DNA of 64,000 nt from a bacterium (GTDB taxonomy: Bacteria; Sysuimicrobiota; Sysuimicrobiia; Sysuimicrobiales; Humicultoraceae): positions 1,885 through 65,884 of the forward strand of contig DASYRG010000015.1 of assembly GCA_036004665.1 (NCBI GenBank). Reading direction: 5' to 3'. A program made the position numbers and the translations under genes. The notes beneath the pieces were generated by a model. The model was not told the origin of the DNA. It worked only from the letters and a program-made list of their open reading frames with translations, and searched no databases. How positions within the stretch are numbered: position 1 is the stretch's first letter; each line of letters opens with the position of its first letter. This document shows, in pieces, positions 2,825 to 60,638 of this stretch.

Positions 2825-2837
2825 GGGTCTGCCTGGC

Positions 2838-29883: not shown

Positions 29884-29884
29884 G

Positions 29885-31057
29885 GTGCCCCCGCTGCGGA
29901 TTCACCGCGCCCGCATCGCCCAGCATAAGCACGACCGGCTGCTGCGGGAGTACCTCAAGCAGAACCTCAACGAGCTAATCCAGCAGAAAGAGCTGATCAT
30001 CGACGGTCGGATCAAGACGCAGATCGCCACCCTCGACCTGCCCACCCTGCGCTACGGAGAGGAAAGCACGCTGCTGGCGCAGGGCAAGGGGACCGGCGCG
30101 GGCGATAGCGGCAAGCGTGGCGGGCGGGACGGCGCCGCGGAGGAGATGCAGGCCCTGGGCGGGCTCCTCGGCGGGGATCACCACGGCCGGGAGCTGCGCG
30201 TGGAGCTGGATTTCGACGAGTTCGTGCGGCTGGCCCAGGAGGTGCTGCTGGAGGAGATCCACCTGCCTCCGCTCTCCGTACCGGGTGCGGCCGGCGAGAT
30301 GGAGTCCGAGGACATGCCCGAGCTCGACGACCTGGACCGCATCGGGCTGCGTCCCGACCTGAACCTGGAAGAGACGATGCTCAGTTCGCTGCTGCGCAAC
30401 GTGCGCGAGCGGGGCGCGCTGGATTACGACGTGGACCTGCGGCAGGACGGCTGGTACTTCATCGAGGACCCCACCACCTACCGCAACCACCGCTCCCTGG
30501 AGGTTTACGTCCTGGACATCTCCGGCTCGATGCGCGGGGAGTACCTGGCGCTGGTGCGCAAGACCATCTTCGTCCTCTGGTACTACCTGGAGCGGCGCTA
30601 CCCCACCAACCTGCGGCGCTACGTCGTCTTCCAGGACGTGGCCACCGAGAAGGTCCGCGACGACTTCTTCTGCGTGGAATCCAGCGGCGGCACGCACATC
30701 TCCACCGGGTTCGAGAAGGCGATGGCGCTGCTGGAGGGCGCCACCGAGTACGACCGCTTCCTCTTCCTCTTCACCGACGGGGAGACCAGCTCGGGCGACT
30801 TCGACCTCGCCAAGCGGCGATATGAAGAGGCGCTGCGGCGCTTCGACCTGGTCTGCTACGGGCACGTCAACCCCGGCGGGCGCGGCATCGGCGGGTTCTC
30901 GGAATACGTGCACGAGAACGTGCGCCGCTCATCCAACGGCACGTTCGCCAACCTGGTGGACGTGGAGTCGATCCGCACCGCCATGGGAGAGTTCTTGAAC
31001 CTGCTCACCCGGGAGGGGAGTCGTGGAGGGGTTCGCGCGCTACGCGCCGATCATTGA
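29885..31057 (+). CDS. yhbH: YhbH/YeaH family protein (DUF444, vWA-like)
   Basis: The GTG start lies 1 nt after the prkA stop. It contains VLDISGSM (MIDAS-like) and FTDGETS motifs typical of DUF444. Confidence 0.85.
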   Translation: MPPLRIHRARIAQHKHDRLLREYLKQNLNELIQQKELIIDGRIKTQIATLDLPTLRYGEESTLLAQGKGTGAGDSGKRGGRDGAAEEMQALGGLLGGDHHGRELRVELDFDEFVRLAQEVLLEEIHLPPLSVPGAAGEMESEDMPELDDLDRIGLRPDLNLEETMLSSLLRNVRERGALDYDVDLRQDGWYFIEDPTTYRNHRSLEVYVLDISGSMRGEYLALVRKTIFVLWYYLERRYPTNLRRYVVFQDVATEKVRDDFFCVESSGGTHISTGFEKAMALLEGATEYDRFLFLFTDGETSSGDFDLAKRRYEEALRRFDLVCYGHVNPGGRGIGGFSEYVHENVRRSSNGTFANLVDVESIRTAMGEFLNLLTREGSRGGVRALRADH

Positions 31058-32183
31058 GCGGATCGAAGCGCTGGCCCGCGCGCGCGGGCTCTCCTTCGAT
31101 CCCGTGTACTTCCGCCTCACCGACTCTGATGAGATCGCGGAAGTCGCCAGCATGGGCCTGCCCAACCGCTTCATCCACTGGTACTGGGGCGGCGCCTACA
31201 AGGAATTGGTGGCGCAGCAGAACAAGGACCTCTTCAGCATCCTCGAACTGGTGCTGAACACCAACCCCTCCCACGCCTTCCTGCGCGCGAACAACACCTA
31301 CCTGCAGAACGTGCTGGTGATCGCGCACGTCTTCGGCCATCTCGATTTCTTCAAGAACAACCACTGGTACCGCAAGTCGAACAAGAACATGCTCAACGAG
31401 GCCGAGCTGCACGCCCGCCTGATCCGGCGCTACGAAGGCAAGCACGGGCGCGAGAAGGTGGAGTCGCTCCTCGACGCCCTCCTCACCGTGGCCACCACGG
31501 TGAACGCGTTCGAGCGCAGCGCGGAGGTGCGGCGCCGCCGGCTGATCTACTTCCTGGAGGACCGCGCGCCCCTGGAGGACTACGAGCGCCACCTGCTGCA
31601 GTCGGTGCGGGAGGAGGCGGAGTACTTCGACCTGATTCAGCGCACCCACATCATCAATGAGGGCTGGGCCACCTTCGTCGAGGCGGAGTTGCTGCGCGAG
31701 ATCCTGGACCCGCAGGAATGGGTGAGCATCTCGGTGCAGTTGTCCAGCCGCCCGGCGCCCTACACCATCGGCTACAGCCTCTTCAAGGCGATTCGGGACG
31801 GGCGGGGGTTTGACGCGGCGCTCGACGCGCGCACCTACTACGAGGACGTGATGCTGATCCAGGACGCCCTAACCGAGGACCTGATCCGGCGTCTCGACAT
31901 CTTCGTCTACGACCCCAAGGAGAAGCAGAAGTCCTACGACATCCAGCGCGTCCGCGACATGCTGATCGACCAGAAGGAGCACAAGGGGCAGCCCCACGTC
32001 GAGGTGGAGGTGGGGCACCACCGCGACCTCACCCTGGTCCACCGGGAGGAGGAGCGCAAGCTGGAGGCCAAGCGCATCGCCCTCTTCCTGCGCGCCGTGC
32101 ACTCCCTCTGGCGCAACCCCGTGCGGCTGCGCGCCAACGGCAAAGTGTTCAGTTATGATCGCCGCGGCTTTTCGTCCACATAA
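31023..32183 (+). CDS. spoVR: SpoVR family protein
   Basis: GLPNRFIHWYWGG, HVFGHLDFFKNN and INEGWATFVE motifs. The GTG start at 31023 overlaps the yhbH end by 35 nt. Confidence 0.88.
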   Translation: MEGFARYAPIIERIEALARARGLSFDPVYFRLTDSDEIAEVASMGLPNRFIHWYWGGAYKELVAQQNKDLFSILELVLNTNPSHAFLRANNTYLQNVLVIAHVFGHLDFFKNNHWYRKSNKNMLNEAELHARLIRRYEGKHGREKVESLLDALLTVATTVNAFERSAEVRRRRLIYFLEDRAPLEDYERHLLQSVREEAEYFDLIQRTHIINEGWATFVEAELLREILDPQEWVSISVQLSSRPAPYTIGYSLFKAIRDGRGFDAALDARTYYEDVMLIQDALTEDLIRRLDIFVYDPKEKQKSYDIQRVRDMLIDQKEHKGQPHVEVEVGHHRDLTLVHREEERKLEAKRIALFLRAVHSLWRNPVRLRANGKVFSYDRRGFSST

Positions 32184-35739: not shown

Positions 35740-37125
35740 GTGAGCCACCTGCGTCTGCGCGCCGGCATCGCCGCCGGCCGTCTCTCCGCGCGCCTCATCC
35801 GCCTCATCGCCGCCGGCGGGGCCACGACGATGCCGGGCCGGGTCGCCGCGGCCGTCGATCCCCAGATCCTCGCCCGTCTGGGCCGGCGGCTGAGCCAGGG
35901 CTCCGTCCTCATCACCGGCACCAACGGCAAGACCACCACCGCCCGCCTCCTTTCCGCCGTTCTGGAGCGCGCGGGCAGAGGCGTCGTGGCGAACCGCGCC
36001 GGGGCAAACCTGCCCTCGGGGATCGTCTCCGCGTTGGTGCGCGCCGGCACGCTCTCGGGGCGCATCGTCGGCGACGTGGGTGTCTTTGAGGTGGACGAGG
36101 CCGCGCTGCCGCTGGTCACCGAGCCGTTGCGCCCGCGCCTGCTGGTCCTGGGCAATCTCTTTCGCGACCAGCTGGATCGCTACGGCGAGATCGATCTGGT
36201 CGCCGACCGCTGGCGCGCGGCGCTGGCGCACCTGGACGGCGGCACGGTGATCTACAACGCGGACGACCCGCTCGTCTCCGACGTGGGACGGACCCATCCG
36301 GCGGGGCGGCCGTTTGGCATCGAGCACCCCGGTCTGTCGAAGGCGACGCTGGAGCACGCCGCGGACGGACGCTACTGCTACCGCTGCGGCGTCCCCTACT
36401 CCTACTCGGCCGTTCACCTGGCGCATCTCGGCACGTACCGCTGTCCCCGCTGCGGCACGGCGCGTCCTTCTCCCGAGGTGGCGGCGGAGAGCGTGCAGTT
36501 GCGCGGGGCGGCCGGCGGAACGTTCACCCTGCGCGCACCGACCGCGTCGGTCCTGATCCAGAGCAGCCTCCCCGGACTCTACAACGTCTACAACGTGCTG
36601 GCGGCAGCGACGGCCGCGCTGGCGCTAGGTGCCTCCCTGGAAGATGTCGCCGCGACGGTGGAGGAATTCAGGCCCGCCTTCGGTCGGGGAGAAGAGATCC
36701 TCATCGAGGGTCACAGGGTCGTGATGCTGCTGGCCAAGAATCCCGCGGGGTTCAACGAAGTCCTGCGCACCGTCACCGCGGCGGGGGAGCCCCTCGTCGG
36801 CGTGATCGCCATCAACGACCACATCGCCGACGGGCGCGACATCTCCTGGCTCTGGGACGTGGACTTCGAGCTGCTCGCCGGGCGCTGCCGCGCCGTGGTG
36901 CTGAGCGGGCTGCGGGCGCCGGAAATGGCGGTGCGCCTCAAATACGCGGGGCTGGACGGGGCTGCCGTGGAGGTCGAACCCGATCTCGAGCGTGCCCTGC
37001 GTATCGGCCTGAGACGCCTCGCCGGCGGGGAGACCCTCTACGTCATGCCCACCTACACGGCGATGTTGGGGCTGCGCGCCGCCCTGGCCCGCCGCGGCCT
37101 CGTGCGCGCCTCCTGGGAGGACTGA
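35740..37125 (+). CDS. murT: Lipid II isoglutaminyl synthase subunit MurT (Mur ligase family)
   Basis: ITGTNGKTTT P-loop, a Cys4 ribbon YCYRCG..YRCPRCG, and a DUF1727-like C-terminus. It lies directly upstream of gatD. Confidence 0.88.
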   Translation: MSHLRLRAGIAAGRLSARLIRLIAAGGATTMPGRVAAAVDPQILARLGRRLSQGSVLITGTNGKTTTARLLSAVLERAGRGVVANRAGANLPSGIVSALVRAGTLSGRIVGDVGVFEVDEAALPLVTEPLRPRLLVLGNLFRDQLDRYGEIDLVADRWRAALAHLDGGTVIYNADDPLVSDVGRTHPAGRPFGIEHPGLSKATLEHAADGRYCYRCGVPYSYSAVHLAHLGTYRCPRCGTARPSPEVAAESVQLRGAAGGTFTLRAPTASVLIQSSLPGLYNVYNVLAAATAALALGASLEDVAATVEEFRPAFGRGEEILIEGHRVVMLLAKNPAGFNEVLRTVTAAGEPLVGVIAINDHIADGRDISWLWDVDFELLAGRCRAVVLSGLRAPEMAVRLKYAGLDGAAVEVEPDLERALRIGLRRLAGGETLYVMPTYTAMLGLRAALARRGLVRASWED

Positions 37126-37129
37126 GGGC

Positions 37130-37924
37130 ATGGCGGGACGCACGACGATGCGGCTGCGCGTCTGTCATCTCTATCCCGACCTGCTCAACCTCTACGGCGA
37201 CCGCGGCAACATCATGACGCTGACCCGTCGCGCCGCCTGGCGCGGTATCGCGGTCGAGGTCACCGAGGTCGGTCTCGGGGAGGCGCTGCGGCCGGAGGCG
37301 CACGATCTGTTCTTCATCGGCGGCGGGGAGGATCGCCAGCAGGTCCTCGCGGCGGCGGATCTGCGCGCGGGGACCGGCGGCGCCCTGCGCGACGCCGTCG
37401 AAGACGGAGCGGTCCTGCTGGCGGTGTGCGGCGGGTATCAGCTGATGGGCCATGCTTATCTGCCGGCGGAGGGCGAGCCTTTGAGGGGGATCGGTCTCCT
37501 CGACCTGGAGACGCGTCACCCCGGCAAAGGGCGGCGCCGGCTGATCGGCAACCTGATCATTCGATGTAGTGGCGAGATAGGTGGGCGATGTGGTGGCGAG
37601 ATAGGTGGGCGATGTGGCGGCGAGACTCTCGTCGGGTTCGAGAACCACGGCGGCCGCACTACCCTTGGCCCATCTGCCCGACCGCTGGGACGGGTCGAGC
37701 GAGGCGGGGGCAACAACGGCGAGGACCGCACAGAGGGGGCGGTCTACCGGCACGCCTATGGTACCTACCTGCACGGGCCGCTGCTGCCCAAGAATCCCTG
37801 GCTGGCGGATCACCTCATCGCCGCGGCGCTGCGCCGGACCCACGGAGAGGTGACACTGGCCCCACTGGACGACCGGCTCGAGCGCGCCGCGCACGAGGCC
37901 GCGCTCAGACGGTTCGGGCGGTGA
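37130..37924 (+). CDS. gatD: Lipid II isoglutaminyl synthase glutaminase subunit GatD (CobQ-type amidotransferase)
   Basis: LYPDLLNLYGDRGN, AVCGGYQL (catalytic Cys) and GFENHGGRT motifs. It contains an in-frame tandem repeat insertion. Confidence 0.88.
   Translation: MAGRTTMRLRVCHLYPDLLNLYGDRGNIMTLTRRAAWRGIAVEVTEVGLGEALRPEAHDLFFIGGGEDRQQVLAAADLRAGTGGALRDAVEDGAVLLAVCGGYQLMGHAYLPAEGEPLRGIGLLDLETRHPGKGRRRLIGNLIIRCSGEIGGRCGGEIGGRCGGETLVGFENHGGRTTLGPSARPLGRVERGGGNNGEDRTEGAVYRHAYGTYLHGPLLPKNPWLADHLIAAALRRTHGEVTLAPLDDRLERAAHEAALRRFGR
37563..37625 (+). repeat. 24-bp in-frame tandem repeat, about 2.6 copies, inside gatD
   Basis: ggcgagataggtgggcgatgtggt occurs at 37571-37594 and is repeated at 37595-37618 with a c at the last base. 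Partial copies flank both. The repeat encodes RCSGEIGG-RCGGEIGG-RCGGE. Confidence 0.85.
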
Positions 37925-44215: not shown

Positions 44216-44707
44216 GTGCTCGCCGCCGCGCTCTCGGCGGAACCCCCCATGGCGCTGCCCGCGGTGGTGGCGGCCCTCGTCGCCGCGGCCCCGACGATCA
44301 TCGCCGTGGTCAATACCGCGGCGCTGTTCTGCCTGCTGGCCGGGTGGCGGGCGATCCGCCGCGGCCGGGTGCGGGCCCACCGCGCCCTGATGCTGGCGGC
44401 GGCGGGCTGCATCAGCTTCTTCCTCATCCTCTACGTCACAAGGGTGAGCCTAGGCGGGGTGAAGGCGTTTCCGGGGCCGGCGGCGGTGCGCGTCTACCTC
44501 TATCTGCCCCTGCTGACCGTCCACATCGGGCTGTCCGTCCTGTCGGTGCCCCTGGTGATCCACAACCTCGTGATCGGTCTAACCTATCGACCCGGAGAGG
44601 TTCCTTTCACGGCGCACCCGCGGGTGGGGCGGTGGGCGGTCTTGCTGTGGTCGATCAGCCTGGTCCTGGGGCTGGTGGTCTACCTGCTCCTCAACGTCCT
44701 CTACTGA
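44216..44707 (+). CDS. DUF420 membrane protein (CtaM-like)
   Basis: About four TM segments (AHRALMLAAAGCISFFLILYV, TVHIGLSVLSVPLVI). It is located after the cta/cox genes, as in Bacillus. The start is uncertain. Confidence 0.7.
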   Translation: MLAAALSAEPPMALPAVVAALVAAAPTIIAVVNTAALFCLLAGWRAIRRGRVRAHRALMLAAAGCISFFLILYVTRVSLGGVKAFPGPAAVRVYLYLPLLTVHIGLSVLSVPLVIHNLVIGLTYRPGEVPFTAHPRVGRWAVLLWSISLVLGLVVYLLLNVLY

Positions 44708-45145
44708 TCACAGCATTCCCTCGTCGCTGAGGCGCTTGACCATAGCCGAGCGCGTATTCACGCCCAGGCGCGTGAAGAGCCGGCGCAGGTGGGTGAGGAC
44801 GGTCCAGCTGCTGATGCCCAGGTGGACGCTGATCTCTTTGGTCGCCAGCCCTCGCCCGACCAGGCGCGCGATCTCCAGCTCTCTCGGTGTCACGTCGACG
44901 TCGGAAGGCCGTTCCCGCAGGCGGCTGAGGCGGTAGGTGGCGCCCTCGACGTCGATCTCGGCCAGCACCTCCTGGACGACCCCGTGAGGCTGCGGCGCCG
45001 CCGCGCCCGCCCGGTCGCGGCTGATCAGCGCCAGTTCTCGCAGCATGCGCTCCCGGGCGGTGGCGAGGTGCGCGAGCTCGCGCAGCATGCCCTCCTCCGT
45101 GCGCTCCTCGACCCGTCGGACCATCCGTGCCGTCATCGTTTTCAT
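44708..45145 (-). CDS. LuxR/GerE-type HTH transcriptional regulator with no receiver domain
   Basis: C-terminal VTPRELEIARLVGRGLATKEISVHLGISSWTVLTHLRRLFTRLGV. I chose the ATG at 45145 because it gives an ATGA overlap with the upstream gene's stop. The track ORF extends to 45163. Confidence 0.8.
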   Translation of the reverse strand: MKTMTARMVRRVEERTEEGMLRELAHLATARERMLRELALISRDRAGAAAPQPHGVVQEVLAEIDVEGATYRLSRLRERPSDVDVTPRELEIARLVGRGLATKEISVHLGISSWTVLTHLRRLFTRLGVNTRSAMVKRLSDEGML

Positions 45146-46434
45146 CGTCCCGCGGCCGCCCATGCCTCCTGCGCGGCAAACGCCTGCGCAAACGCGCGCG
45201 CGGCCTCCCCCTCCCTTCCCGCCTCCATGTGCGCATAGCCGATGTCGCGCAGCGCCTCGGCGCGTTCTTTGTTCATGTCCATCTCGCCGAACATCTCGGC
45301 GGCGCGGCGGTATCGGGTCACCGCCTCGTCCAGACGCCGCTCCACGCGGGCCACCGCCCCCAGGACCGCCTCGCCCCGCGCCGCCTCAGCGGGATCCTCG
45401 AGCTGCTGGGCCAGCCGCACCGCCTCGGCGGCCCACCGCTCCGCCTCACCGGCCCGCCCCTGCGCCAGCGCGGCCCTGGCCAGTTCGGTCAAGGTCGCCC
45501 CCCGGCCGGAATCGTCGGCGAGGCGCTCGGCGATGGTCAGGCTCTGGCGAAGAAGGGTTTCGGCGTCCGCGGGGCGGCCGCGTTCCAGCAGCAGCATCGC
45601 CTGATTCCGCTTCACGCCGCCGAGGAGCTGCAGGTTTTCCTGGACCTCCAGATGCGCTGACGCCCGCTGCAGGTACGCCGCGGCCTCGTCGAAGGCCCGA
45701 TCCTGCATCGCCGCGATTCCGCTGTTGATGTCCAGCAGGGCACGGGCGGCGGGATCGGCCGCCTGATCCAGGAAGGCCCTGGCCTCCTCGAACGCGGCGA
45801 GCGCCTGCCCCGCGAGCCCCAGGTTGAGGAAGACGCGTCCCAGGTTGGTGAGGATGACCGCCTGGAGGCGCCGGTCCGGTGGGTCGCTGCGGCGGATCAA
45901 GGCCAGGGCATCGGTGAGGTGAGTGCGGGCCACCCGGAAGCGCCGCCGCCGGATGGCGAGCAGCCCGCGGGCATTGGCGGCCAGCGCCGCCAGCCCTGCG
46001 TCCGCCAGTGCCGCTGCCCCACTGTCGGCGCGACGAAGGTGTTCATCGGCGAGGTCGAACTGGCGCAGGCCCAGGAGCGCCTGCCCGAGCCCGAGGCGAG
46101 CTCGCGTCAGCAGACGCCGATCGCCGGCCCGCACCGCCAGGGCCTCCGCCGCCTGATAGGCTTCGAGCGCCGGGGTCAGCTGATGCTGACGGAGGAGGAT
46201 GTCTCCGTGGCGAAGCCTCGCTTCGGCCTCTCCGGGCCCGTCAGCTTCGGATAGGAGCGAGGAGGAGGTGACGCCCAGCCGGTCTGCGAGGAGGCGGAGG
46301 GTGGCGAGGGACGGCCGGACCTTGCCGTGCTCCACCATGCTGATGAAGCTGACCGACAGGTCGCCTCCGGCGAGGGCGCGCTGCGTCATCCCCCTGGCCT
46401 TCCGGAGATCGCGGATTTTCACACCCAGCCCCAC
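45142..46434 (-). CDS. XRE-family HTH protein with a long TPR-like repeat domain (RRNPP-like architecture)
   Basis: N-terminus IRDLRKARGMTQRALAGGDLSVSFISMVEHGKVRPSLATLRLLADRLGV, followed by about 350 aa of Ala/Leu/Arg-rich helical repeats. No signal peptide or TM segment is present. Confidence 0.8.
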   Translation of the reverse strand: MGLGVKIRDLRKARGMTQRALAGGDLSVSFISMVEHGKVRPSLATLRLLADRLGVTSSSLLSEADGPGEAEARLRHGDILLRQHQLTPALEAYQAAEALAVRAGDRRLLTRARLGLGQALLGLRQFDLADEHLRRADSGAAALADAGLAALAANARGLLAIRRRRFRVARTHLTDALALIRRSDPPDRRLQAVILTNLGRVFLNLGLAGQALAAFEEARAFLDQAADPAARALLDINSGIAAMQDRAFDEAAAYLQRASAHLEVQENLQLLGGVKRNQAMLLLERGRPADAETLLRQSLTIAERLADDSGRGATLTELARAALAQGRAGEAERWAAEAVRLAQQLEDPAEAARGEAVLGAVARVERRLDEAVTRYRRAAEMFGEMDMNKERAEALRDIGYAHMEAGREGEAARAFAQAFAAQEAWAAAGR

Positions 46435-46493
46435 GGCCCACCCCCGGAGCGATCATCGGGATGACCCGGGGCGGGGTGTTGAGTCGGTTGGGG

Positions 46494-46619
46494 TTACCTC
46501 TCCCCCGTGCCCCCGTAGGAGTCGAAGTCTCCCGACCCCGCAAACGCAGGCGCGGCGCCAGCCGGAAGAAGGACTCCCAGGGACAGGGCAAGGAGGACTC
46601 CAATCAGGATCCTCTTCAC
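46494..46619 (-). CDS. Unannotated small ORF (41 aa): predicted secreted pro-peptide
   Basis: GTG start with GGAGG 7 nt upstream and a TAA stop. My codon-by-codon translation is VKRILIGVLLALSLGVLLPAGAAPAFAGSGDFDSYGGTGER, a signal-peptide-like n/h/c region with an AFA-G cleavage site. By my count 32 of 41 codons end in G or C, consistent with coding sequence in this genome. Confidence 0.5.
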   Translation of the reverse strand: MKRILIGVLLALSLGVLLPAGAAPAFAGSGDFDSYGGTGER

Positions 46620-46783
46620 CTGTCTCCCTCCCCTTGTGGTGTCTGTTAGAAGCCTTATCGGCAACTGCGCCGGTTTTTAGACCCCGGCCCACCCTTCGGG
46701 GAGGGAGGTCGGTCCGGCCCCGGGTCTCTCAGGCGGCCCCTTCTTGGTCAGAGACTAAAGTTCCTGCTTCCAGGCTCCGAAAT

Positions 46784-46798
46784 TTCAGTAAAACTGAA
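46784..46798. promoter_or_regulatory. Perfect palindrome TTCAGT-AAA-ACTGAA in the divergent region between the peptide ORF and the GYD gene; candidate operator
   Basis: Read directly from the sequence. It lies in an unusually AT-rich patch of this GC-rich window. Confidence 0.3.
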
Positions 46799-46894
46799 TG
46801 GGGTGAAGAAGGGAACTTAATGGTAGAAACCGTGTAGGAAGGGCTGTCATGAGGGCGAAAGGAACAGCTATCCCCTTTTTGGGAGGTGCTGCTC

Positions 46895-47185
46895 GTGCCG
46901 ACCTACATCATGCTGAGCACGCTGACGGACAGTGGTGCCGAGACCCTGAGCAAACAGCCCGACCGCCTCAAGGAGGTCAACCGCGAGATCGAAGCGATGG
47001 GGGTGAAAGTGGTTCAACAGTACGCGGTGTTGGGCCCGTACGACTTCGTCAACATTGTCGAGGCGCCCGACAACGACACGGTCGCCCGGGTTTCTGTGGA
47101 GCTCGGTGCCCGAGGCAGCGTGCGTATCGTCACTCTGGCGGCGATTCCGATCGACACCTTTGTCGGAAGACTGAAGAAGAAGTAG
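46895..47185 (+). CDS. GYD domain-containing protein
   Basis: PTYIMLSTLTDSGAETL...EIEAMGVKVVQQYAVLGPYDFVNIVEAPDNDTV matches the GYD family pattern. The GTG at 46895 lies 8 nt after GGGAGG. The track ORF starts at 46886. Confidence 0.75.
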   Translation: MPTYIMLSTLTDSGAETLSKQPDRLKEVNREIEAMGVKVVQQYAVLGPYDFVNIVEAPDNDTVARVSVELGARGSVRIVTLAAIPIDTFVGRLKKK

Positions 47186-47191
47186 CCGCGG

Positions 47192-47752
47192 TCAGTCCCC
47201 GTGCGCGGCCCGGAGGCGGGGAGAGAGGCGGAGCATCAGCGACACCCGTTCGAACTCCCGCAGCCAGTCGGCGGTCACGTCGGCCAGCACGTCGGGACCG
47301 GGTGGGAGGATACCGGTGGGACAGGATGGGCCGAGCCGCTCGTGAGCCATCCTGCGGTAGGTCGCCAGACTGCGGTCTCCATAGCGGGCGCACTCTTCGA
47401 AGTCTTCGCTCAGGAAGAGGACGATAGGGATCCGCCGCCCGGCGTTAAGCCTCAGCTCGTCCTGCACCACAGGCTCTTCATCGCGGTCGGCGAATCGCAG
47501 GCGAATCTGGGGCGCCGCCTCGGCGAGGCGCTGGAGGATGGGTCCCTGCGTCGCGCAGTCGCCGCACCAGGTACCCGCCAGGCAGAGAAGGTGCATCCGT
47601 CGTTGAAAGCCAGAGAGCAGCTCGACCTGCGCTTCGGTCAGCCGGATCCGCTCGTACACGGCGTGCCAGCGCTCCCGGTGCGCCTCTGTGCCGTGGCGGG
47701 CGAGGAACTCGTGGTACGGCTGCGCGCGGTCAAATACCGTCTGCCAGGCCAT
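47192..47752 (-). CDS. Thioredoxin-fold protein (WCGDC active site)
   Basis: Only the last 186 codons of track ORF 47192..48892 look real: MAWQTVFDRAQPYHEFL...LLCLAGTWCGDCATQGPIL. The ATG at 47752 follows GGGAG. Confidence 0.75.
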   Translation of the reverse strand: MAWQTVFDRAQPYHEFLARHGTEAHRERWHAVYERIRLTEAQVELLSGFQRRMHLLCLAGTWCGDCATQGPILQRLAEAAPQIRLRFADRDEEPVVQDELRLNAGRRIPIVLFLSEDFEECARYGDRSLATYRRMAHERLGPSCPTGILPPGPDVLADVTADWLREFERVSLMLRLSPRLRAAHGD

Positions 47753-48009: not shown

Positions 48010-48282
48010 ATGCCATTGGATGATCGCGAGGCCATCCGCCGGCTGCGTGCGGCGGTGGCGGCCGCCGCCCCCGATGTCGAACTGGATGCGCCGTCTGTCC
48101 GTTGGGTGGAGACGCCCTATCCGGGAGTGAGATACGGGCTCCGCCTGGGCCGGGCGACCGCGCTGCTGTTCCTCCCCGTCGAGGACATCGACGGCGAAGG
48201 GTGGGAGGATCGGCTGCCCGCGCGCCTCCGCGAGGCCAGCGCCTACCTGGAGCAGTTCCCCCTCGCCCGCGTACCTCGCTAG
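48010..48282 (+). CDS. Hypothetical small protein (90 aa)
   Basis: Coding-like codon bias. It starts 8 nt after the preceding ORF. I recognise no motif. Confidence 0.45.
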   Translation: MPLDDREAIRRLRAAVAAAAPDVELDAPSVRWVETPYPGVRYGLRLGRATALLFLPVEDIDGEGWEDRLPARLREASAYLEQFPLARVPR

Positions 48283-49090: not shown

Positions 49091-50830
49091 ATGATCAGCA
49101 GACGGCTCCGCACCTACCTCGGCAGGCACCGCCGCGCGTACATCCAGGGGTTCGCCCTGGGCGTCCTCGCCACCGGCATCAGCCTGATCACGCCCTCGAT
49201 TCTCCGGCGGGCGGTGGACGGCATCCGCGCGGGGATGGCGACGCGGGATCTCATCGCCCTCGGCGCGATCTACGTCGGGCTGGCGCTCCTGGCGGCGACG
49301 ATCCGTTTCTTCTGGCGCACGGAGGTCATCGGCGCCTCCCGGCGCATCGAGTACGAAATCCGCAACGACTTCTTCGCCCACCTGCAAAGACTGCACCAGG
49401 GGTTCTTCCAGCACACCCGCACCGGCGACCTGATGGCGCGCGCCATCAACGACCTCAACGCAGTGCAGCGGCTCTCCGGTCCGGGAATCATGTACGCCAT
49501 CAACACGCCGGTGATGCTGCTACTGGTCGGTGCCTGGATGTTCAGCCTCGACGTCCGGCTGGCGCTGGTCGTCTCCGTGATCATGCCCCTGGTGACGGTG
49601 ATCTTCTTCCTGCTGGGCCGGCGCATCCACCACCGCTACCAGGGGGTGCAGGAACAGTTCAGCACCATCTCCGCGCGGGCCCAGGAGAACTTCTCCGGCA
49701 TCCGCGTCGTGAAAGCGTTCGCCCAGGAGCCCTACGAGGTCGAAGAGTTCGCCGGGGTCAACCGGGAGTTCATCGCCCGCAACCTGCGCCTCATCCGCGT
49801 GCAAGGGGCGCTCTGGCCATCGATGAGCCTGATCCTGGGGATCGCCTCGGCCCTCCTCCTCTGGCAGGGTGGCCGGGCGGTCGGCCAGGGACGCATCACA
49901 GTGGGGACGCTGGTGCAGTTCTACGCCTACCTGGGGCAGCTCAGCTGGCCGATGATCGCGCTCGGCTGGGTGACCAACCTGATCCAGCAAGGGATGGCCT
50001 CGATGGCCCGGCTGGACGAGATCTTCAACGCGCGCCCAGAGATCGCCGATCACCCCGACCCCCTGCCGGTGGAGCGGCTGACCGGGCGGATCGAGTTCCG
50101 CAACGTCAGTTTCGCCTACAATGGGCACCCCGTGCTACACGAGGTCACCCTCACCGTGCCCGCCGGCAGCACGCTGGCCATCGTCGGCCCGACGGGTGCC
50201 GGAAAGAGCACCCTGGTCAACCTGATCGGGCGATTGAACGACCCGACCGACGGGCAGGTGCTCATCGACGGGATCGAGACGCGGAGGCTGCCGCTGGCGA
50301 CGCTGCGCCGGGCGATCGGCTTCGTCCCCCAGGAACCCTTTCTCTTCTCGGAGACCATCGAAGAGAATCTGCGGTTCGGCGTCGAAGCGGGCGACGGGAT
50401 GAAGGCGGCGGCGGCCGCCGAGGTGGCGCAGCTGGCCCGCGACGTGCAGGACTTTCCGCACGGGTACGACACCGTGCTGGGGGAGCGCGGCGTGACCCTT
50501 TCCGGCGGGCAGAAACAGCGCGCCACCCTCGCCCGGGCGCTGGCCCGAGACCCGGCCATCCTGATCCTGGACGACGCGCTCAGCAGCGTGGACACCCACA
50601 CGGAAGAGCAGATCCTCCAGGGCCTCCGCGGGGTGATGGCCACGCGCACCAGCATCATCATCTCGCACCGGATCAGCACGGTGCGGGGGGCGGATCAGAT
50701 CATCGTGCTGGACGAGGGCCGCATCGTCGAGCGGGGAACGCACGAGGAGCTGCTGGCCGCCGACGGCCTCTACGCCGATCTCTACCGGAAGCAGTTGCTG
50801 GCCGAGGAACTGGAAGAGGCGGACGGCTAA
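49091..50830 (+). CDS. ABC exporter, fused permease/ATPase (half-transporter 1 of a heterodimer)
   Basis: Six-TM domain followed by Walker A GPTGAGKST, signature LSGGQKQR, and Walker B ILILDDALSSVD. Confidence 0.9.
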   Translation: MISRRLRTYLGRHRRAYIQGFALGVLATGISLITPSILRRAVDGIRAGMATRDLIALGAIYVGLALLAATIRFFWRTEVIGASRRIEYEIRNDFFAHLQRLHQGFFQHTRTGDLMARAINDLNAVQRLSGPGIMYAINTPVMLLLVGAWMFSLDVRLALVVSVIMPLVTVIFFLLGRRIHHRYQGVQEQFSTISARAQENFSGIRVVKAFAQEPYEVEEFAGVNREFIARNLRLIRVQGALWPSMSLILGIASALLLWQGGRAVGQGRITVGTLVQFYAYLGQLSWPMIALGWVTNLIQQGMASMARLDEIFNARPEIADHPDPLPVERLTGRIEFRNVSFAYNGHPVLHEVTLTVPAGSTLAIVGPTGAGKSTLVNLIGRLNDPTDGQVLIDGIETRRLPLATLRRAIGFVPQEPFLFSETIEENLRFGVEAGDGMKAAAAAEVAQLARDVQDFPHGYDTVLGERGVTLSGGQKQRATLARALARDPAILILDDALSSVDTHTEEQILQGLRGVMATRTSIIISHRISTVRGADQIIVLDEGRIVERGTHEELLAADGLYADLYRKQLLAEELEEADG

Positions 50831-50832
50831 GG

Positions 50833-52656
50833 ATGGCGATGCACTTTCAGGAAGACGAGATTCTCGGCCGGGCGTACGACGCCCGCCTGATGCGGCGCCT
50901 CCTCGGCTACGTGCGCCCCTACTGGCCGACGGTGGCGGTCGCGGTCGTGCTGATGCTGCTGCACCTGTCCACCTCGCTGGCCGGCCCCTACCTCTGGCGC
51001 CTCGGCATCGACAACTACGTCACGCCCCGCCGGCTGGAGGGACTGGGCCGGCTGACCGCGGCCTACCTGGGCATCCTGGCCGCCGGCTTCGGCCTACGCT
51101 ACGTGCACAGTTACCTGATGACGACGGTCGGGCAGCGTGCGATGTTCGACCTGCGCCTGGCGCTCTTTGCCCACCTGCAGCGGCTCTCGGTGCGGTTCTA
51201 CACGCACACGCCGGTGGGGCGGCTGATCACCCGCATCACCAACGACATCGACGCCCTCAACGAGATGATCACCCAGGGCATCGTCGGCATCTTCGGCGAT
51301 CTGATCATGCTGGTGGGGATCGTCGTCGTCATGCTGGCCCTCTCCTGGCGCCTGGCGCTGGTCACGTTCACCGTGCTGCCGCTGATCCTCTGGGTCACGG
51401 CGCAGTTCCGGGTGAAGGCGCGGGATACCTACCGGGCCGTGCGGACGCGGCTGGCCCGCATCAACGCCTACCTCAACGAGAACATCACGGGCATGGCCAT
51501 CGTGCAGCTCTTCAACCGGGAGCGACGCAACTTCGCGCAGTTCGATGGCCTCAACCGCGAGCTGCTGACTTGGAACCTGCGCGGGCTGCGCGCCTTCGCC
51601 ATGTTCCACCCCTCCGTGGGCGTGATCAGCTCGATGGCCATCGCCTTCATCCTGATCTTCGGCGGCGGCCTCTACCGGGAGACGGTGACCATCGGTCTGC
51701 TGGTGGCCTTCATCCAGTACGCGCACCGCTTCTTCGAGCCGATCGAAGAGCTCGCGGAGAAGTACAACATCCTGCAGGCGGCCATGGCGTCCTCCGAGCG
51801 CATCTTCCGGTTGCTCGACGAGCCGGTGGAGGTCACCGATCCCATCGAGCCCGTGCCCCTGGAGCGCGTCCGCGGCGAGATCGAGTTCCGCAACGTCTGG
51901 TTCGCCTATGAAGCCGGCGAGGACGGGACACCCGACTGGGTGCTCCGGGACGTCTCCTTCCACATCCGGGCGGGTGAGAGCGTGGCCTTCGTCGGCCACA
52001 CCGGCGCGGGGAAGTCCTCCGTCATCAACCTGATCACGCGGTTCTGGGATCCGCAGCGCGGCCAGGTGCTGGTGGACGGTGTCGACGTCCGCCGCTACAG
52101 ACAGCGTGAACTGCGCCGCCACATCGGGCTGGTGCTGCAGGACGTCTTCCTCTTCAGCGGCACGGTGGAGTCCAATATCCGGCTGGGCAACGCTGAGATC
52201 TCGGATCAGGCGGTGCGCGAGGCGGCCACCTTCGTCAACGCCCACCGTTTCGTCGACCGGCTGCCCAGGGGGTTCAAGACCGAGGTGCACGAGCGCGGCG
52301 CCACTCTCTCGGTCGGGCAGAAGCAGCTGATCGCCTTCGCCCGCGCCATCGCCCACAACCCGGAGATCCTGCTGGTGCTCGACGAAGCTACCAGCAGCGT
52401 GGACACCGAGACGGAGATCCTGATCCAGGATGCCCTGGCCAAGGTGCTGTCCGGCCGCACCTCGATCATCATCGCCCACCGGCTCAGCACCATCCAGCAC
52501 GTGGACCGCATCATCGTCCTGCACAAGGGCCGCATCGTCGAAGAGGGGCGCCACCACGACCTCCTCGGCCGCGGCGGCATCTACACGAAGCTCTACCAGC
52601 TGCAGTACCGCGACCAGGAGCTGCGCATCCCCCGCCTGGCCCGCGGCGATGGCTGA
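50833..52656 (+). CDS. ABC exporter, fused permease/ATPase (half-transporter 2)
   Basis: ATG at 50833 inside track ORF 49081..52656. Walker A GHTGAGKSS, signature LSVGQKQL, and Walker B LLVLDEATSSVD. Confidence 0.9.
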   Translation: MAMHFQEDEILGRAYDARLMRRLLGYVRPYWPTVAVAVVLMLLHLSTSLAGPYLWRLGIDNYVTPRRLEGLGRLTAAYLGILAAGFGLRYVHSYLMTTVGQRAMFDLRLALFAHLQRLSVRFYTHTPVGRLITRITNDIDALNEMITQGIVGIFGDLIMLVGIVVVMLALSWRLALVTFTVLPLILWVTAQFRVKARDTYRAVRTRLARINAYLNENITGMAIVQLFNRERRNFAQFDGLNRELLTWNLRGLRAFAMFHPSVGVISSMAIAFILIFGGGLYRETVTIGLLVAFIQYAHRFFEPIEELAEKYNILQAAMASSERIFRLLDEPVEVTDPIEPVPLERVRGEIEFRNVWFAYEAGEDGTPDWVLRDVSFHIRAGESVAFVGHTGAGKSSVINLITRFWDPQRGQVLVDGVDVRRYRQRELRRHIGLVLQDVFLFSGTVESNIRLGNAEISDQAVREAATFVNAHRFVDRLPRGFKTEVHERGATLSVGQKQLIAFARAIAHNPEILLVLDEATSSVDTETEILIQDALAKVLSGRTSIIIAHRLSTIQHVDRIIVLHKGRIVEEGRHHDLLGRGGIYTKLYQLQYRDQELRIPRLARGDG

Positions 52657-57188: not shown

Positions 57189-60100
57189 TCAGCCCCCGGC
57201 GAGGGCCAGCACCCGCTGGACTCGACGGGAATGCAGAAAGACGGCGCGTAGCCGTTCGTCGGGGACCGATGCGGCGATGCGTTCGATGATCTCCCGACCC
57301 TTTTGGGCGCTGGCGGAGGCTTCCCCCGGGCGGCCCTGCGTCTTGTGCACCTCGGTCATGCCGGCGAGGGCGCGCCACAAGGCGGGAAGGCGCCCCGTCG
57401 TTTCTGCCTCGCGCGCTGCTTCCTGAAACTGCCCCAGAGCGTCCGTGTGCTCTCCCAGGGCCGCGGCAGCCTCCCCGGCGATGAGCAGCCCTGGCACTCG
57501 CCAGTGCTTCGCCTCGCCGATCTCGACGAGCCGGGCGAGATGCTCCGCAATTCTGTGGGCTTCTGCAGGCCGACCATGCAGGATTTCACTCAACCCCTCC
57601 AGGTAGGCAACCTCCTCTGCGAAGTCCAGGCGGGTCTCGGTCTCCTCCAGAGCCCGCCGCGCCCGGGTAATCTCCGTCTCCGCCTCCTCCCACCTCCCCA
57701 GCGCCGCCTTGTCGGCCGCGAGCGAGGCTCGGATAACCGGCAGCCAGACTCCTCTGACTTGATGTCCCAGCGCCAGCGCCTCCTCGTCGGTGGCCAGAGC
57801 GCCCGCGTAGTCTTCGAGTTCGCGATGGACCCGGCCGATGATGAGGAGGCTGTAGACGTGGATCCGTACCGCCCCGATCTGGCTGGCCAGGTCGACGCCG
57901 CGCGCGGCCAGAGTGAGGGCCCGACCGAAATCTCCCCGGATGGCGGCCAGGTTGGCCTGGACGAAGAGAGCGGGAGAGAGGTTGCGCGCATCCCCGATTT
58001 CCCCGAGGACGGCAACGCTGCGGTCGGCCTCGGCCTGCGAGGTCACGTAGTCTCCCCCTTTCTGCCGGGCGAACGCGATCATGTAGCGGTTCTCGCCCCC
58101 GAGCGAACGGTTGCCCAGCCGTTCGCACAGGGCCAGTGACTCCACGTACGACTTGACGGCGTCTTCGAAGCGGCCGAGGAACGCGAGATTGTCTCCCAAC
58201 CCGTGCAGGCTCTCCGCCAATCCCGCGGCGTCGTTGGCCCTCTCCAGGAGGTGCCGCGCCTCCTCGTGCACGCGGATGGACTCGGCATGATTGTCTTGGG
58301 CGAAAATGGTGAAGCCGATGTGGTTGAGGATCTGGCCGGTCAAGACAGGATCCTCCAACCGACGGCTGATCGCCAGGGCCCGCTCCAGGTATTCCAGCGC
58401 GGTCGCGTACTGGTCCTGTTGCCGGTAGGCGAAGCCGGTGCGGTCGAGGGCGATGGCTTCCCACCGGGGCTGCTCCAGCTCGCGGGCGAGCGCGCGGACA
58501 GCATCGAAGTCTGCGCGGGCCTGATCGTATTGTCCGAGGAGGAACCAGACCTCGCCCCGGCCATGGAATGCCCGCAGCCGTGCCGGCGAGGCGGGGTGAA
58601 GGTCGAGGGCGCGGGTGAAGTGGTCGAGCGCGGTCGTGTTCGCGTAGACGCCGGCGGCGCGCTCTCCGGCCAGAAGCAGGTGCGTGGTGGCCTCCTCCTG
58701 CGCTCGGAGGTCCGGAGGGAGCCCCAACTCCTGGCGCAGGCCAACAACCTGCAGCCAGTGATGGGCGATGTAGTCGGACCATTCCGCCGGCCGGTCGGCC
58801 GCCATCTGCGCTGTCCACTCCGCCATCCGCTCGTGCTGCAGCAGCCGGCGCGACTTGGGGATCATCGCGTAGGCTACGTCCCGGATGAGGATGTGGCGAA
58901 AGGTAAACTCGTCTTCCCCCACGAGCGTCGAGCGCAGCTTGCGGATCAACAGTTCCTTGTCGACCAAGGCCTGGACTGCATCCTCGATGTGGTTGCCTTG
59001 AACGACCAGCCGCAGCGGGCCCAGCCAGAAATCCTTCCCCTGAACAGCGGCGCCCTGCAGAGTCTGTTTCTCGGGGAGCGGCAGCGTGTCCACCCGCGCG
59101 CCGATGACGGCTTGGACCGTATCGGGAATCGCCACTTCTCCGAGGGGGATCGTCAACGCCCACCGGCCGTTCTCTTTGCTCAGGATCCCCCCCTCGACGA
59201 GGACGCGCAGCATCTCCTCCATGAAGAGCGGGTTGCCTTCCGCTCGGCGGAGGACCAATGCCACGACCTCCTCGGGCGCCGCCCTCTGGCCGAGGATCGC
59301 CTGAGCGAGCGCCCGGCTGTCCTCCCCTGGGAGAGGGTCCAGGAAGAGCGTGGTGGCACTGCGCTTGCCGCCCATCCAGCTTCTCCGCCGCTCCAACAAC
59401 TCGGGCCGGGAGAGGACGACCAGCAGCAGGGGAATGTCGCGGATCCAATCCCCGGCGTCCTCCAGAAAATCCAGCGTGACGTCCTCGGCGGAGTGAAAGT
59501 CTTCCAGGGTGAGGATCAGCGGGGCGCGGTCAGACAGCGCTCGAAAGAAGCCGCGCATCCCGGCAAAGAGCTCCTCGCGTGTGAGGTCCCGTCCTCCTCC
59601 CCCGAGCCCCAGGACGGTCAAGAGGGCAGGGACCGCGGCAGAGACTTCCAGCGCCGCCGCGGCCGCTTCCAGCTTATGGCGGGCAGACTCGAGGGGATCA
59701 CCGAAGAGGATGCCACACTGCTCGCGGATGGCCTCGGCCAGAGACCAGAACGGCACCCCCGTTCCATAGGGGATGGCGCGGCCCTGGAGGATGTGCACCT
59801 GCCCCTCCAGCACCCATCCGGTCCGTTGTCGAAACTCCTGGACCAGGCGGGTCTTGCCGACTCCCGCCGGGCCGAGGAGCGTCACCACATGGCCCCGCCT
59901 CTCCCGCAGCATTCGCCGCACGTGGCCCCCGAGGAGGTCCAGTTCCTCCTGCCGGCCGACGAAGGGCGTCGCCCGCAGCTCACGGGGTCGCGGAGGCGGA
60001 ACCTCCAGGAGCTGCCAGGCGGGCAGAGGCTGGGTCCGCCCCTTCACCTCCAGCGGAGGCACGGCGCGCAGCGTCGCCACATTCTGCAACGCTCTCATGG

Positions 60101-60638
60101 TCCGTTCCCCGACCAAAATCTGGCCCGGTTCGGCATGCTGCTGCAGGCGGGCAGCCAGATTCACGGTCTCGCCCGTGACCAGGAATTCCCCTTTCGCGGC
60201 CGCCTGCGGATCGGCCACCACCTCGCCCGTGTACAGGCCGATGCGGATCGGCGGGAGGTCGCCGGTCTCCGAGAGCGGATGGACTCGTTGCTCGACGGCT
60301 GCGGCGGCGCGCGCCGCCCGCTCGGGGTCGTCCTCGTGGAGGGTGGGGAGGCCGAAGACGGCCATGACGGCGTCGCCGATGAACTTTTCCACGGTCCCAC
60401 CGAAGCGCTCGATCTCCTCCCGGGCGATGGTGAAGAAACGGGCCATCTGCGCGCGCAATGACTCCGGGTCCACCGCGCTGGAGAGGTGCGTCGAGCCGAC
60501 GACGTCGGCGAAGAGCACCGTGACGAACTTTCGCTCCTCTCCCGCCGTCTGACCCGTCGCCATGGCGGTCCCGCAGTTGCCGCAGAAGCGCATGCCCGGT
60601 GGGTTCTGGAAGCCGCAGGTCGGACAGCTCGTGGTCAT
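57189..60638 (-). CDS. Class III adenylate/guanylate cyclase fused to an AAA/STAND ATPase and TPR repeats, with an N-terminal zinc ribbon
   Basis: CPTCGFQNPPGMRFCGNCG, then cyclase motifs VTVLFADVVGST and GDAVMAVFG, a P-loop LLGPAGVGKTRL, and a long TPR-like C-terminus. Confidence 0.88.
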   Translation of the reverse strand: MTTSCPTCGFQNPPGMRFCGNCGTAMATGQTAGEERKFVTVLFADVVGSTHLSSAVDPESLRAQMARFFTIAREEIERFGGTVEKFIGDAVMAVFGLPTLHEDDPERAARAAAAVEQRVHPLSETGDLPPIRIGLYTGEVVADPQAAAKGEFLVTGETVNLAARLQQHAEPGQILVGERTMRALQNVATLRAVPPLEVKGRTQPLPAWQLLEVPPPRPRELRATPFVGRQEELDLLGGHVRRMLRERRGHVVTLLGPAGVGKTRLVQEFRQRTGWVLEGQVHILQGRAIPYGTGVPFWSLAEAIREQCGILFGDPLESARHKLEAAAAALEVSAAVPALLTVLGLGGGGRDLTREELFAGMRGFFRALSDRAPLILTLEDFHSAEDVTLDFLEDAGDWIRDIPLLLVVLSRPELLERRRSWMGGKRSATTLFLDPLPGEDSRALAQAILGQRAAPEEVVALVLRRAEGNPLFMEEMLRVLVEGGILSKENGRWALTIPLGEVAIPDTVQAVIGARVDTLPLPEKQTLQGAAVQGKDFWLGPLRLVVQGNHIEDAVQALVDKELLIRKLRSTLVGEDEFTFRHILIRDVAYAMIPKSRRLLQHERMAEWTAQMAADRPAEWSDYIAHHWLQVVGLRQELGLPPDLRAQEEATTHLLLAGERAAGVYANTTALDHFTRALDLHPASPARLRAFHGRGEVWFLLGQYDQARADFDAVRALARELEQPRWEAIALDRTGFAYRQQDQYATALEYLERALAISRRLEDPVLTGQILNHIGFTIFAQDNHAESIRVHEEARHLLERANDAAGLAESLHGLGDNLAFLGRFEDAVKSYVESLALCERLGNRSLGGENRYMIAFARQKGGDYVTSQAEADRSVAVLGEIGDARNLSPALFVQANLAAIRGDFGRALTLAARGVDLASQIGAVRIHVYSLLIIGRVHRELEDYAGALATDEEALALGHQVRGVWLPVIRASLAADKAALGRWEEAETEITRARRALEETETRLDFAEEVAYLEGLSEILHGRPAEAHRIAEHLARLVEIGEAKHWRVPGLLIAGEAAAALGEHTDALGQFQEAAREAETTGRLPALWRALAGMTEVHKTQGRPGEASASAQKGREIIERIAASVPDERLRAVFLHSRRVQRVLALAGG

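Follow-up and report, generated by a model that had tools for sequence, protein, structure and literature searches.

Is peptide signalling through cytoplasmic receptors confined to the Firmicutes? Communication of the RRNPP type is the textbook case of a secreted peptide language, and surveys treat it as restricted to Bacillota, their phages and their plasmids; among 13,513 complete genomes, RRNPPA systems were found only in Firmicutes (PMC9765709). The question is raised by a locus in a 64-kb stretch of contig DASYRG010000015.1 (assembly GCA_036004665.1; "the window" below means this whole stretch), where three minus-strand genes follow one another: a 41-codon open reading frame (ORF), a gene for a protein with HTH_3 (helix-turn-helix, HTH) and tetratricopeptide repeat (TPR) domains, and a gene for a GerE/LuxR-type regulator. 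A preliminary description of this DNA had read the locus as a peptide/receptor pair of RRNPP-like architecture in a GC-rich genome. We found this reading supported by the conserved pairing of small ORF and receptor gene, by tandem-repeat pro-peptides in paralogous loci and by the co-diversification of peptides and receptors. The cassette appears to be a well-supported, undescribed RRNPP-like system whose function we infer from sequence. With a probability of roughly 70%, we read it as an operon of three genes that serves peptide signalling between cells by way of a cytoplasmic receptor and follows RRNPP logic.

The small gene and its pairing with the receptor

The small ORF runs from a GTG (46619-46617) to a TAA (46496-46494) and encodes the 41-residue product VKRILIGVLLALSLGVLLPAGAAPAFAGSGDFDSYGGTGER, which contains no Cys. 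Its ribosome-binding site, GGGGAGGGAG, contains a GGAGG that ends 7 nt 5' of the GTG. The preliminary description had given the same coordinates, start, stop and GGAGG, and all of them were confirmed. In a mechanical ORF list the frame starts at an upstream TTG (46664, 56 aa); the aligned orthologues start with ATG or GTG at the position equivalent to 46619. Residues 1-27 form a predicted Sec-type signal peptide, composed of MKR, a 15-residue hydrophobic core and PAFA. It passed all rule-based features, with K/R in residues 2-3, a mean Kyte-Doolittle value of 2.7 for the core, Pro at -4 and A-x-A at -3/-1, which agrees with the basic n-region, core of about 15 residues, A-x-A site and hydrophilic, Cys-free tail described before. 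Cleavage is predicted at AFA↓G (the arrow marks the cut) and would release the tail GSGDFDSYGGTGER with its conserved core G-x-G-D-x-D-x-[FY]-G.

Judged by 13 distinct orthologues, the small ORF is under purifying selection. Mean pN (nonsynonymous differences) was 0.217 and mean pS (synonymous differences) 0.504, third codon positions were the most variable, and dN/dS was about 0.2-0.5, with values of the orthologues against the window ranging from 0.07 to 0.52. A-x-A↓G-x-GD-x-D-x-[FY]-G was invariant in this alignment, and a Pro at -4 to -6 together with A-x-A was kept in all orthologues of the window's clade (clade A below). The ORF is annotated as a gene in loci L008 and L009.

To see how far the pairing extends, we translated the upstream regions of the first receptor homologues and then 80 further metagenome loci, and passed the ORFs through a rule-based filter (K/R n-region, hydrophobic core, small-x-small site). 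All receptor homologues came from metagenome-derived sequences. Among 27 loci with receptors of 43% identity or more, 26 had an upstream ORF with a signal peptide and the shared motif G-x-G-[DG]-x-[DE]. Since the same filter yields 0.041 qualifying ORFs per 400 nt of one strand of the window, about one of 27 loci would be expected to score by chance. The products of the 26 related loci measure 39-92 aa, which, like the 41 aa in the window, lies within the published RRNPP range (10-100 aa), and the gap between peptide gene and receptor gene is 7-159 nt in the relatives. The small ORF proposed as half of a pair is conserved beside orthologous and paralogous regulators alike and evolves under purifying selection.

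Orthologous loci keep the order GYD, small ORF, HTH-TPR gene, GerE gene, DUF420, cox. The small ORF still stands directly upstream of receptors of about 48-50% identity that lie in very different neighbourhoods, and the receptor is the sole gene that stays with the peptide across these unrelated contexts. No mobile-element genes were seen in the cassette loci examined, and no immunity, modification, protease-exporter or dedicated export genes were conserved near the cassette in any context examined. Conservation and placement mark the small ORF as a genuine gene that belongs with the receptor.

The peptides themselves fall into classes. Orthologues carry a single motif copy, AFA↓G[SRP]GD[FMVIA]D[SF][FY]G, and paralogues carry two to five tandem copies of GHGDGE[VL]LGG (for example GHGDGEVLGG), AGHGDGPVLDREM, AGDGNIEVI or AGAGDLDIV; a further set, the GHGGGELL clade, has a single or doubled GHGGGE[IL]L unit. 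In the tandem copies, every repeat ends x-A ahead of the next G, a junction that resembles the signal-peptidase site. A neighbour-joining tree of the receptors groups them exactly by peptide class.

The receptor and its GerE-type partner

The receptor gene begins 59 nt after the small ORF on the same strand. Between the two, no terminator-like sites were found on the gene strand, and the 59-nt spacer folds no better than shuffled sequences (z 0.95). At its other end the receptor TGA (45144-45142) shares an ATGA overlap with the ATG (45145-45143) of the 145-aa GerE protein. No sigma-70 consensus was found within 44400-47300. Taken together, the layout suggests that the three genes probably share one transcript. 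The spacing, the HTH and TPR content of the 430-aa protein and the ATGA overlap with a protein ending in a LuxR/GerE HTH had all been noted previously, and each of these points was borne out.

In the receptor, Pfam recognized HTH_3 at residues 7-57 (E 1e-10), TPR_12 (E 1e-23), TPR_MalT and TPR_2. An XRE-type HTH (residues 1-62) is followed by nine 40-residue helical pairs of the TPR_12 type (residues 67-429), and neither an export signal nor a membrane-binding feature was found in the protein. Its 430 aa (415-449 aa in relatives) fall within the 250-500 aa of the RRNPP signature. An AlphaFold2 model built with 32 homologues reached a predicted local distance difference test score (pLDDT) of 93.4 and consists of five HTH helices and 18 helices forming nine repeats. 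The repeat register places N197, N237 and N277 at the equivalent helix-A position of repeats 4-6; an Asn ladder of such kind holds extended peptides in TPR grooves.

We then compared the single-copy clade A with the tandem-repeat clade B, whose receptors are separated by 34 positions. Of these, 20 map to A helices, including 12 within repeats 3-5; B helices account for ten, and the HTH for one. This concentration in the A helices points to a conserved DNA-reading head and a groove that diverges in step with the peptides, and it matches a conserved operator combined with a diverging peptide. Co-diversification and the A-helix residues together would be indirect support for binding of the peptide to the TPR domain. 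One further protein deserves mention beside the receptors: in a metagenome-assembled genome (MAG) of the phylum CSP1-3, a second TPR protein of 411 aa with a weak HTH_3 match (L011:4313-5548, minus strand) is encoded convergently to a clade-B receptor and is possibly an orphan paralogue.

The third gene encodes a small protein whose GerE HTH occupies residues 86-136 (Pfam, E 3.6e-12). Its database twin starts three codons later, at ATG 45136. The protein is built from an N-terminal helix, a beta-hairpin QEVLAEIDVEGATYRLSR (conserved as QEVLAEVDVEGTTYRLSR) and a four-helix GerE HTH; AlphaFold2 modelled helices 87-141 with pLDDT > 90 and the N-terminus with low confidence. A receiver, autoinducer-binding or other sensory domain was not found in it. 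Its sequence matches in the Protein Data Bank (PDB) were GerE-type HTH domains and response regulators of the LuxR/NarL family, including GerE, NarL and ComA, with the ComA C-domain of the RapF-ComA entry 3ulq_B as a weak match (E 0.009). By tblastn, a GerE gene lies downstream of the receptor in every clade-A locus and in the GHGGGELL clade and is missing from the GHGDGE clade; the partner family is small and confined to the host lineage. The translationally coupled LuxR-type regulator of the preliminary description is real and coupled, though in two of three receptor clades only, and because of this distribution we regard it as accessory, not core.

Conserved boxes and leader upstream of the peptide gene

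Four boxes recur in the same order ahead of the peptide gene in both orthologues and paralogues: a half-site [A/C]TTCAG[T/C], the palindrome TTCA-N7-TGAA, the 11-mer AGGAACTTCAG and GTCGAA/TCAAGAA. The palindrome of the window, TTCAGT-N3-ACTGAA, had been reported as a perfect palindrome in an AT-rich patch; both statements hold, the patch having a GC content of 0.575-0.59 (about 0.69 elsewhere) and the palindrome being the only match in 64 kb. Its offset to the AGGAACTTCAG box is fixed at 33 nt in orthologues and paralogues, and its two arms change symmetrically. In 24 fetched loci the exact 11-mer occurs a single time, ahead of the peptide gene and in its orientation; it is absent from loci with a receptor of about 30% identity. 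A regulon search of the window returned neither a second palindrome nor a second AGGAACTTCAG box. TTCA-N7-TGAA is a candidate operator for an HTH dimer, at which the receptor would autoregulate, because the conserved boxes match the conserved HTH.

The cassette is flanked by a divergent GYD-domain gene (46886-47185, plus strand) on one side and by DUF420 and a cytochrome oxidase operon on the other. GYD gene and cassette diverge from one intergenic region, with box 1 about 65 nt before the GYD start codon, and the GYD gene may be co-regulated with the cassette in the orthologous clade.

Between boxes and start codon lies a leader that is conserved in seven orthologous loci (Table 1). Two of its elements, GGGTCTAAAAACC and CGATAAGG, are invariant in 7/7 of these loci and absent from the paralogues; together they might form a promoter (TCTAAA-N16-GATAAG) or belong to a structured leader. 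A third element, CCTCCCTCCCC, is the complement of the peptide gene's Shine-Dalgarno sequence, GGGGAGGGAG. RNAalifold paired both stretches with weak covariation (term +1.0, few compensatory pairs), and L008 carries a matching change on both sides of the pairing (ATCCTCCCC / GGGGAGGAT). The pairing could mask translation, with the covariation for it being weak. Rfam had no match in the leader region. Two promoter assignments were tried and rejected: GGAACTT as a -35 element of the ECF (extracytoplasmic function) type, as GTCGAA/TCAAGAA follows only about 11-13 nt downstream and not 16-17 nt, and a sigma-54 promoter, as TGGAAG is not conserved.

Table 1. Features of the cassette and its upstream region (positions in the window)
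Feature	Position	Strand	Evidence
Pro-peptide gene, 41 aa	46494..46619	-	Sequence, 13 distinct orthologues aligned, pN/pS
HTH-TPR receptor (putative), 430 aa	45142..46434	-	Pfam, AlphaFold2 model, repeat register, Foldseek, profile against PDB sequences
Small LuxR/GerE-type regulator, 145 aa (142 aa from ATG 45136)	44708..45145	-	Pfam, tblastn, AlphaFold2
Half-site ATTAAGT, upstream of the AGGAACTTCAG box	46815-46821		
Perfect palindrome TTCAGT-N3-ACTGAA, general form TTCA-N7-TGAA	46784..46798	.	Unique in window; conserved offset
Box AGGAACTTTAG, family consensus AGGAACTTCAG	46755..46765	-	Occurrence across loci
ACCAAGAA, downstream of the AGGAACTTCAG box	46741-46748		
Conserved leader between boxes and start codon	46620..46740	-	Alignment of 7 orthologous loci
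Leader element CCTCCCTCCCC	46698-46708		
Leader element GGGTCTAAAAACC	46672-46684		
Leader element CGATAAGG	46653-46660		
Shine-Dalgarno sequence GGGGAGGGAG	46624-46633	-	

Relation to known systems, alternative readings and hosts

How would such a cassette work? In the mechanism we propose, the pro-peptide would be exported and cut after AFA, releasing GSGDFDSYGGTGER, possibly trimmed around the G-x-G-D-x-D-x-[FY]-G core; in the paralogues several identical units would be released from the tandem repeats. At high density the peptide would re-enter through an oligopeptide permease and dock on the concave face of TPR repeats 3-6, where the Asn ladder (N197, N237, N277) lies. The loaded receptor would then change its action at the TTCA-N7-TGAA / AGGAACTTCAG site, with autoregulation and possibly an effect on the divergent GYD gene as the outcome. 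The GerE regulator would most likely be an output factor whose synthesis scales with that of the receptor, or else a partner held and released by the TPR domain, as Rap does with the GerE-type domain of ComA. Two M3-family oligoendopeptidase genes (PepF-like) are also present in the window (11617-13341 and 19734-21437, both on the minus strand); PepF of Bacillus can degrade signalling peptides.

We compared the cassette with the RRNPP signature of Bernard et al. 2023, which comprises five criteria and in which Sec export of the pro-peptide is judged by SignalP (PMC10075063). All five features, namely a small pro-peptide, Sec export (rule-based here), receptor length, TPR repeats and adjacent genes, were found. 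Tandemly repeated pro-peptides are likewise a known RRNPPA feature, as described in passages of PMC11343458 and PMC9765709.

Closest in build is NprR-NprX of the Bacillus cereus group, with an HTH and about nine repeats. NprR is a cytoplasmic protein of about 420-430 aa with an XRE-type HTH and about nine TPR-type repeats, encoded beside the gene of a small Sec-exported pro-peptide, NprX, of which an internal or C-terminal fragment is the signal. Superposed on our receptor model, NprR (5dbk_A) gave TM-scores of 0.64 (TMq, query-normalized) and 0.75 (TMt, target-normalized) over 356 columns at 13% identity. The repeats here, however, are regular 40-residue TPR_12 units, whereas those of NprR are degenerate 34-residue TPRs. 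The peptide gene lies upstream here and downstream there, the motif G-x-G-D-x-D/E is unrelated, the host belongs to CSP1-3 and not to Bacillota, and a coupled GerE regulator is added. PlcR-PapR offers a second parallel: PlcR is an HTH_3 and TPR factor that binds a secreted and re-imported peptide, recognizes a palindromic box and controls its own expression. With 293 residues in the chain, PlcR is the shorter protein, and its palindrome differs from TTCA-N7-TGAA, as do the position and motif of the peptide gene.

Rap-Phr shares with the cassette a TPR receptor of secreted peptides, and certain Rap proteins sequester ComA by its GerE/LuxR-type DNA-binding domain until a peptide binds and frees it. 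Rap, however, lacks an HTH and acts only through protein partners, whereas the receptor here has an HTH of its own; the GerE protein, unlike ComA, is dedicated, co-translated and without a receiver domain, and an interaction between receptor and GerE protein is hypothetical. Phr pro-peptides can carry tandem copies, according to a passage of PMC11343458, as the paralogues do here. AimR-AimP, AloR-AloP and related systems similarly consist of adjacent genes, co-diversifying paralogous pairs and multi-copy pro-peptides (as passages of PMC9765709 and PMC7425212 have it); they are described in Bacillota and mobile elements, whereas the loci here are chromosomal and belong to CSP1-3 MAGs. Eukaryotic scaffolds such as LGN/Pins, the TPR region of OGT and kinesin light chain also form superhelical TPR domains and score strongly in profile searches, but have no HTH and no adjacent pro-peptide gene. 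In LGN an Asn ladder binds extended peptides.

On the structural side, the check proposed in the preliminary description, whether the TPR domain finds its best matches outside the RRNPP families, gave a mixed outcome. The highest query-normalized TM-scores in a Foldseek search of the PDB belonged to RapJ with bound peptide (4gyo_A, 0.67) and NprR, and RappLS20 appeared at ranks 33, 45 and 49. A profile of the receptor searched against PDB sequences found PlcR (2qfc, E 1.6e-15, query 2-263 to chain 5-267), the sole solved protein colinear with the receptor over both HTH and TPR, although generic TPR proteins outscore it by far; the top 60 of this search contained no Rap, NprR or AimR. The match to the TPR_12 scaffold shows only the canonical fold of a peptide-binding TPR superhelix.

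Several observations weigh against an RRNPP-like signalling operon. By Foldseek E-value, LGN/Pins and OGT lead (4e-11) and rank above every RRNPP protein, the part of the structural check that did not favour RRNPP. At E <= 1e-30 the receptor profile picks up 17,886 unrelated-looking cluster representatives; most are giant multi-TPR proteins, which swamp the exhaustive search so that it gives no measure of family size, and no curated NCBIfam model reaches its cut-off on the receptor. Identical boxes in paralogous systems would mean that the systems interfere with one another at the DNA level, or that some other factor binds there. Among the 40 scanned proteins of the window there were no SBP_bac_5/Opp genes, and if CSP1-3 cells have an outer membrane, the release route of the peptide differs. 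With generic TPR_12 repeats, generic TPR proteins ahead by E-value and no curated model that fits, common descent from the RRNPP families is not established.

What else could the peptide be? It is unlikely, though it deserves weight, that the secreted peptide is a regulated product (an effector, a metal-binding or an antimicrobial peptide) and not a ligand, the regulator sensing something else, for example the GerE protein. Such a product would suit an operon that opens with the peptide gene, immediately downstream of the conserved boxes, a TPR domain of the generic protein-binding type and a clade-A cassette that adjoins cox genes and two ABC exporters. The His/Asp/Glu-rich GHGDGE repeats of the paralogues could bind metal, but the tail of the window clade (GSGDFDSYGG) has no His, so metal binding is not conserved and was rejected as a general explanation. 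It also speaks against a regulated product that the peptide class co-varies with the receptor clade, that the discriminating receptor positions concentrate in A helices and not in the HTH, that the receptor alone stays with the peptide across unrelated contexts, and that immunity, modification or dedicated export genes are not conserved.

If the 41-aa product stayed uncleaved, the result would be a mini-protein crossing the membrane once: a signal anchor, its short tail outside the cell, by which the regulator or another membrane complex would be tethered or modulated. Its core of 15-18 residues could span the membrane, and cleavage is predicted from the A-x-A rule only; yet A-x-A with a Pro at -4 to -6 recurs in all clade-A orthologues, one to five repeats ending x-A before the next G fit the release of units and not an anchor, and the receptor has no membrane-binding feature, which makes an anchor improbable. 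We give still less credence to a precursor of a bacteriocin or a ribosomally synthesized and post-translationally modified peptide (RiPP) with repeated cores, the HTH-TPR protein being its pathway regulator. Multi-core precursors do exist among RiPPs, and the TPR region has one weak NCBIfam match to a RiPP-associated TPR protein (E 1.5e-4, far below the cut-off), but the N-terminus is a Sec signal and not a leader peptide, and the surroundings of the cassette, whatever the context, hold no conserved gene for a modifying enzyme, protease-exporter or immunity protein. That the small ORF is a chance frame in GC-rich DNA, without which the regulator pair works, might be suspected from its size below usual gene-calling cut-offs and from several related loci in which it is uncalled. 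Its presence in 26/27 loci with about one expected, the dominance of third-codon-position variation with pN < pS, the conserved Shine-Dalgarno sequence with an aligned start codon and the gene calls in L008 and L009 refute this reading by conservation, as far as sequence analysis reaches, and leave it a negligible chance.

NCBI labels the host MAGs as 'Armatimonadota bacterium' and names the proteins generically; one of the host assemblies, GCA_031459385.1, is listed as p__CSP1-3 with 71.9% GC (PMC11604079, supplementary table). The window itself is placed in CSP1-3 through a relative at about 50% identity and through shared labels and GC content. CSP1-3/Sysuimicrobiota falls within Terrabacteria and outside the Bacillota range of the RRNPP family, a range that is observed and not a mechanistic requirement. 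Oligopeptide transporters have been reported for CSP1-3 (PMC11962464). Our literature searches found no publication linking RRNPP systems to CSP1-3 or Actinomycetota; surveys had either looked for such systems in Firmicutes alone or found them nowhere else. As to the envelope, the window encodes a MurT-like ligase and a GatD-like amidotransferase (peptidoglycan amidation) at 35740-37924 on the plus strand. MurT/GatD pairs are typical of Gram-positive-type walls.

Receptors of about 30% identity from soil metagenomes (L043-L093) have no same-strand upstream ORF. About 170 nt upstream of them lies a divergent mini-gene that encodes a signal peptide and a very short tail ending [DP]WGP or PWW, as in MRNRLLLWLPILTALALAALGAMDWGP. 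This distant group counts 2,895 proteins at E <= 1e-20, with members assigned by NCBI to Gaiellaceae and Actinomycetota, and mini-genes were confirmed in two named MAG contigs, L095:2297-2425 and L096:2111-2366 (both minus strand), the latter with two tandem copies. In the Gaiellaceae contig L095, the receptor at 2501-3835 is paired with the peptide MRRRLFLWLPVIGAIAAALANAADWGP. By its sequences, the group looks like a second undescribed peptide/receptor family. An Actinomycetota match of the genome scan, L003, was set aside as an unrelated XRE protein that matches in the HTH only.

We see even chances that peptide signalling by way of HTH-TPR receptors in the cytoplasm is no invention of the Firmicutes and that a large, undescribed superfamily of receptor/pro-peptide pairs spans other Terrabacteria. 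It would comprise G-x-G-D-type peptides, often in tandem, in CSP1-3 and divergently encoded peptides ending [DP]WGP in soil Gaiellaceae/Actinomycetota, with a dedicated GerE-type output partner in some clades, and would either share a very ancient ancestry with RRNPP or have arisen independently by assembly on a generic TPR_12 scaffold. If true, this would widen the known range of RRNPP-type communication to an uncultured thermophilic/subsurface phylum and to one of the most abundant actinobacterial lineages of soil, and would bear on its single or repeated origin. It would also supply synthesizable predicted signals (GSGDFDSYGG, GHGDGEVL, ...DWGP) for organisms not yet in pure culture, and tools limited to Firmicutes genomes would miss such systems.

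A few neighbouring genes were recorded along the way. In six clade-B loci an extradiol-dioxygenase-like (Glyoxalase) gene precedes the cassette (L022:98-1776, L024:216-1876, L030:12-1579, L012, L027 and L040); a flavin reductase gene also precedes it in four clade-B loci, three of them among these six, and in L096, the Actinomycetota locus, a Glyoxalase gene likewise sits beside the peptide genes. Such neighbours may be targets of regulation or simply reflect synteny within the lineage. Two adjacent ABC exporter genes (ABC_membrane and ABC_tran, 579 and 608 aa; 49091-52656, plus strand) are syntenic with the clade-A cassette and not with the paralogues; since the peptide has a Sec signal, a role of theirs in its export is not indicated. 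A 90-aa ORF without Pfam match (48010-48282, plus strand) keeps its synteny in orthologous loci (90-92 aa). Further away in the window are a PrkA / DUF444 (YhbH-like) / SpoVR-like gene trio at 28210-32183 (plus strand), in a non-Firmicutes genome, and a gene at 57189-60638 (minus strand) for a 1149-aa STAND-type signalling protein with an adenylate/guanylate cyclase domain, an AAA_16 ATPase and TPR_12 / MalT-like repeats.

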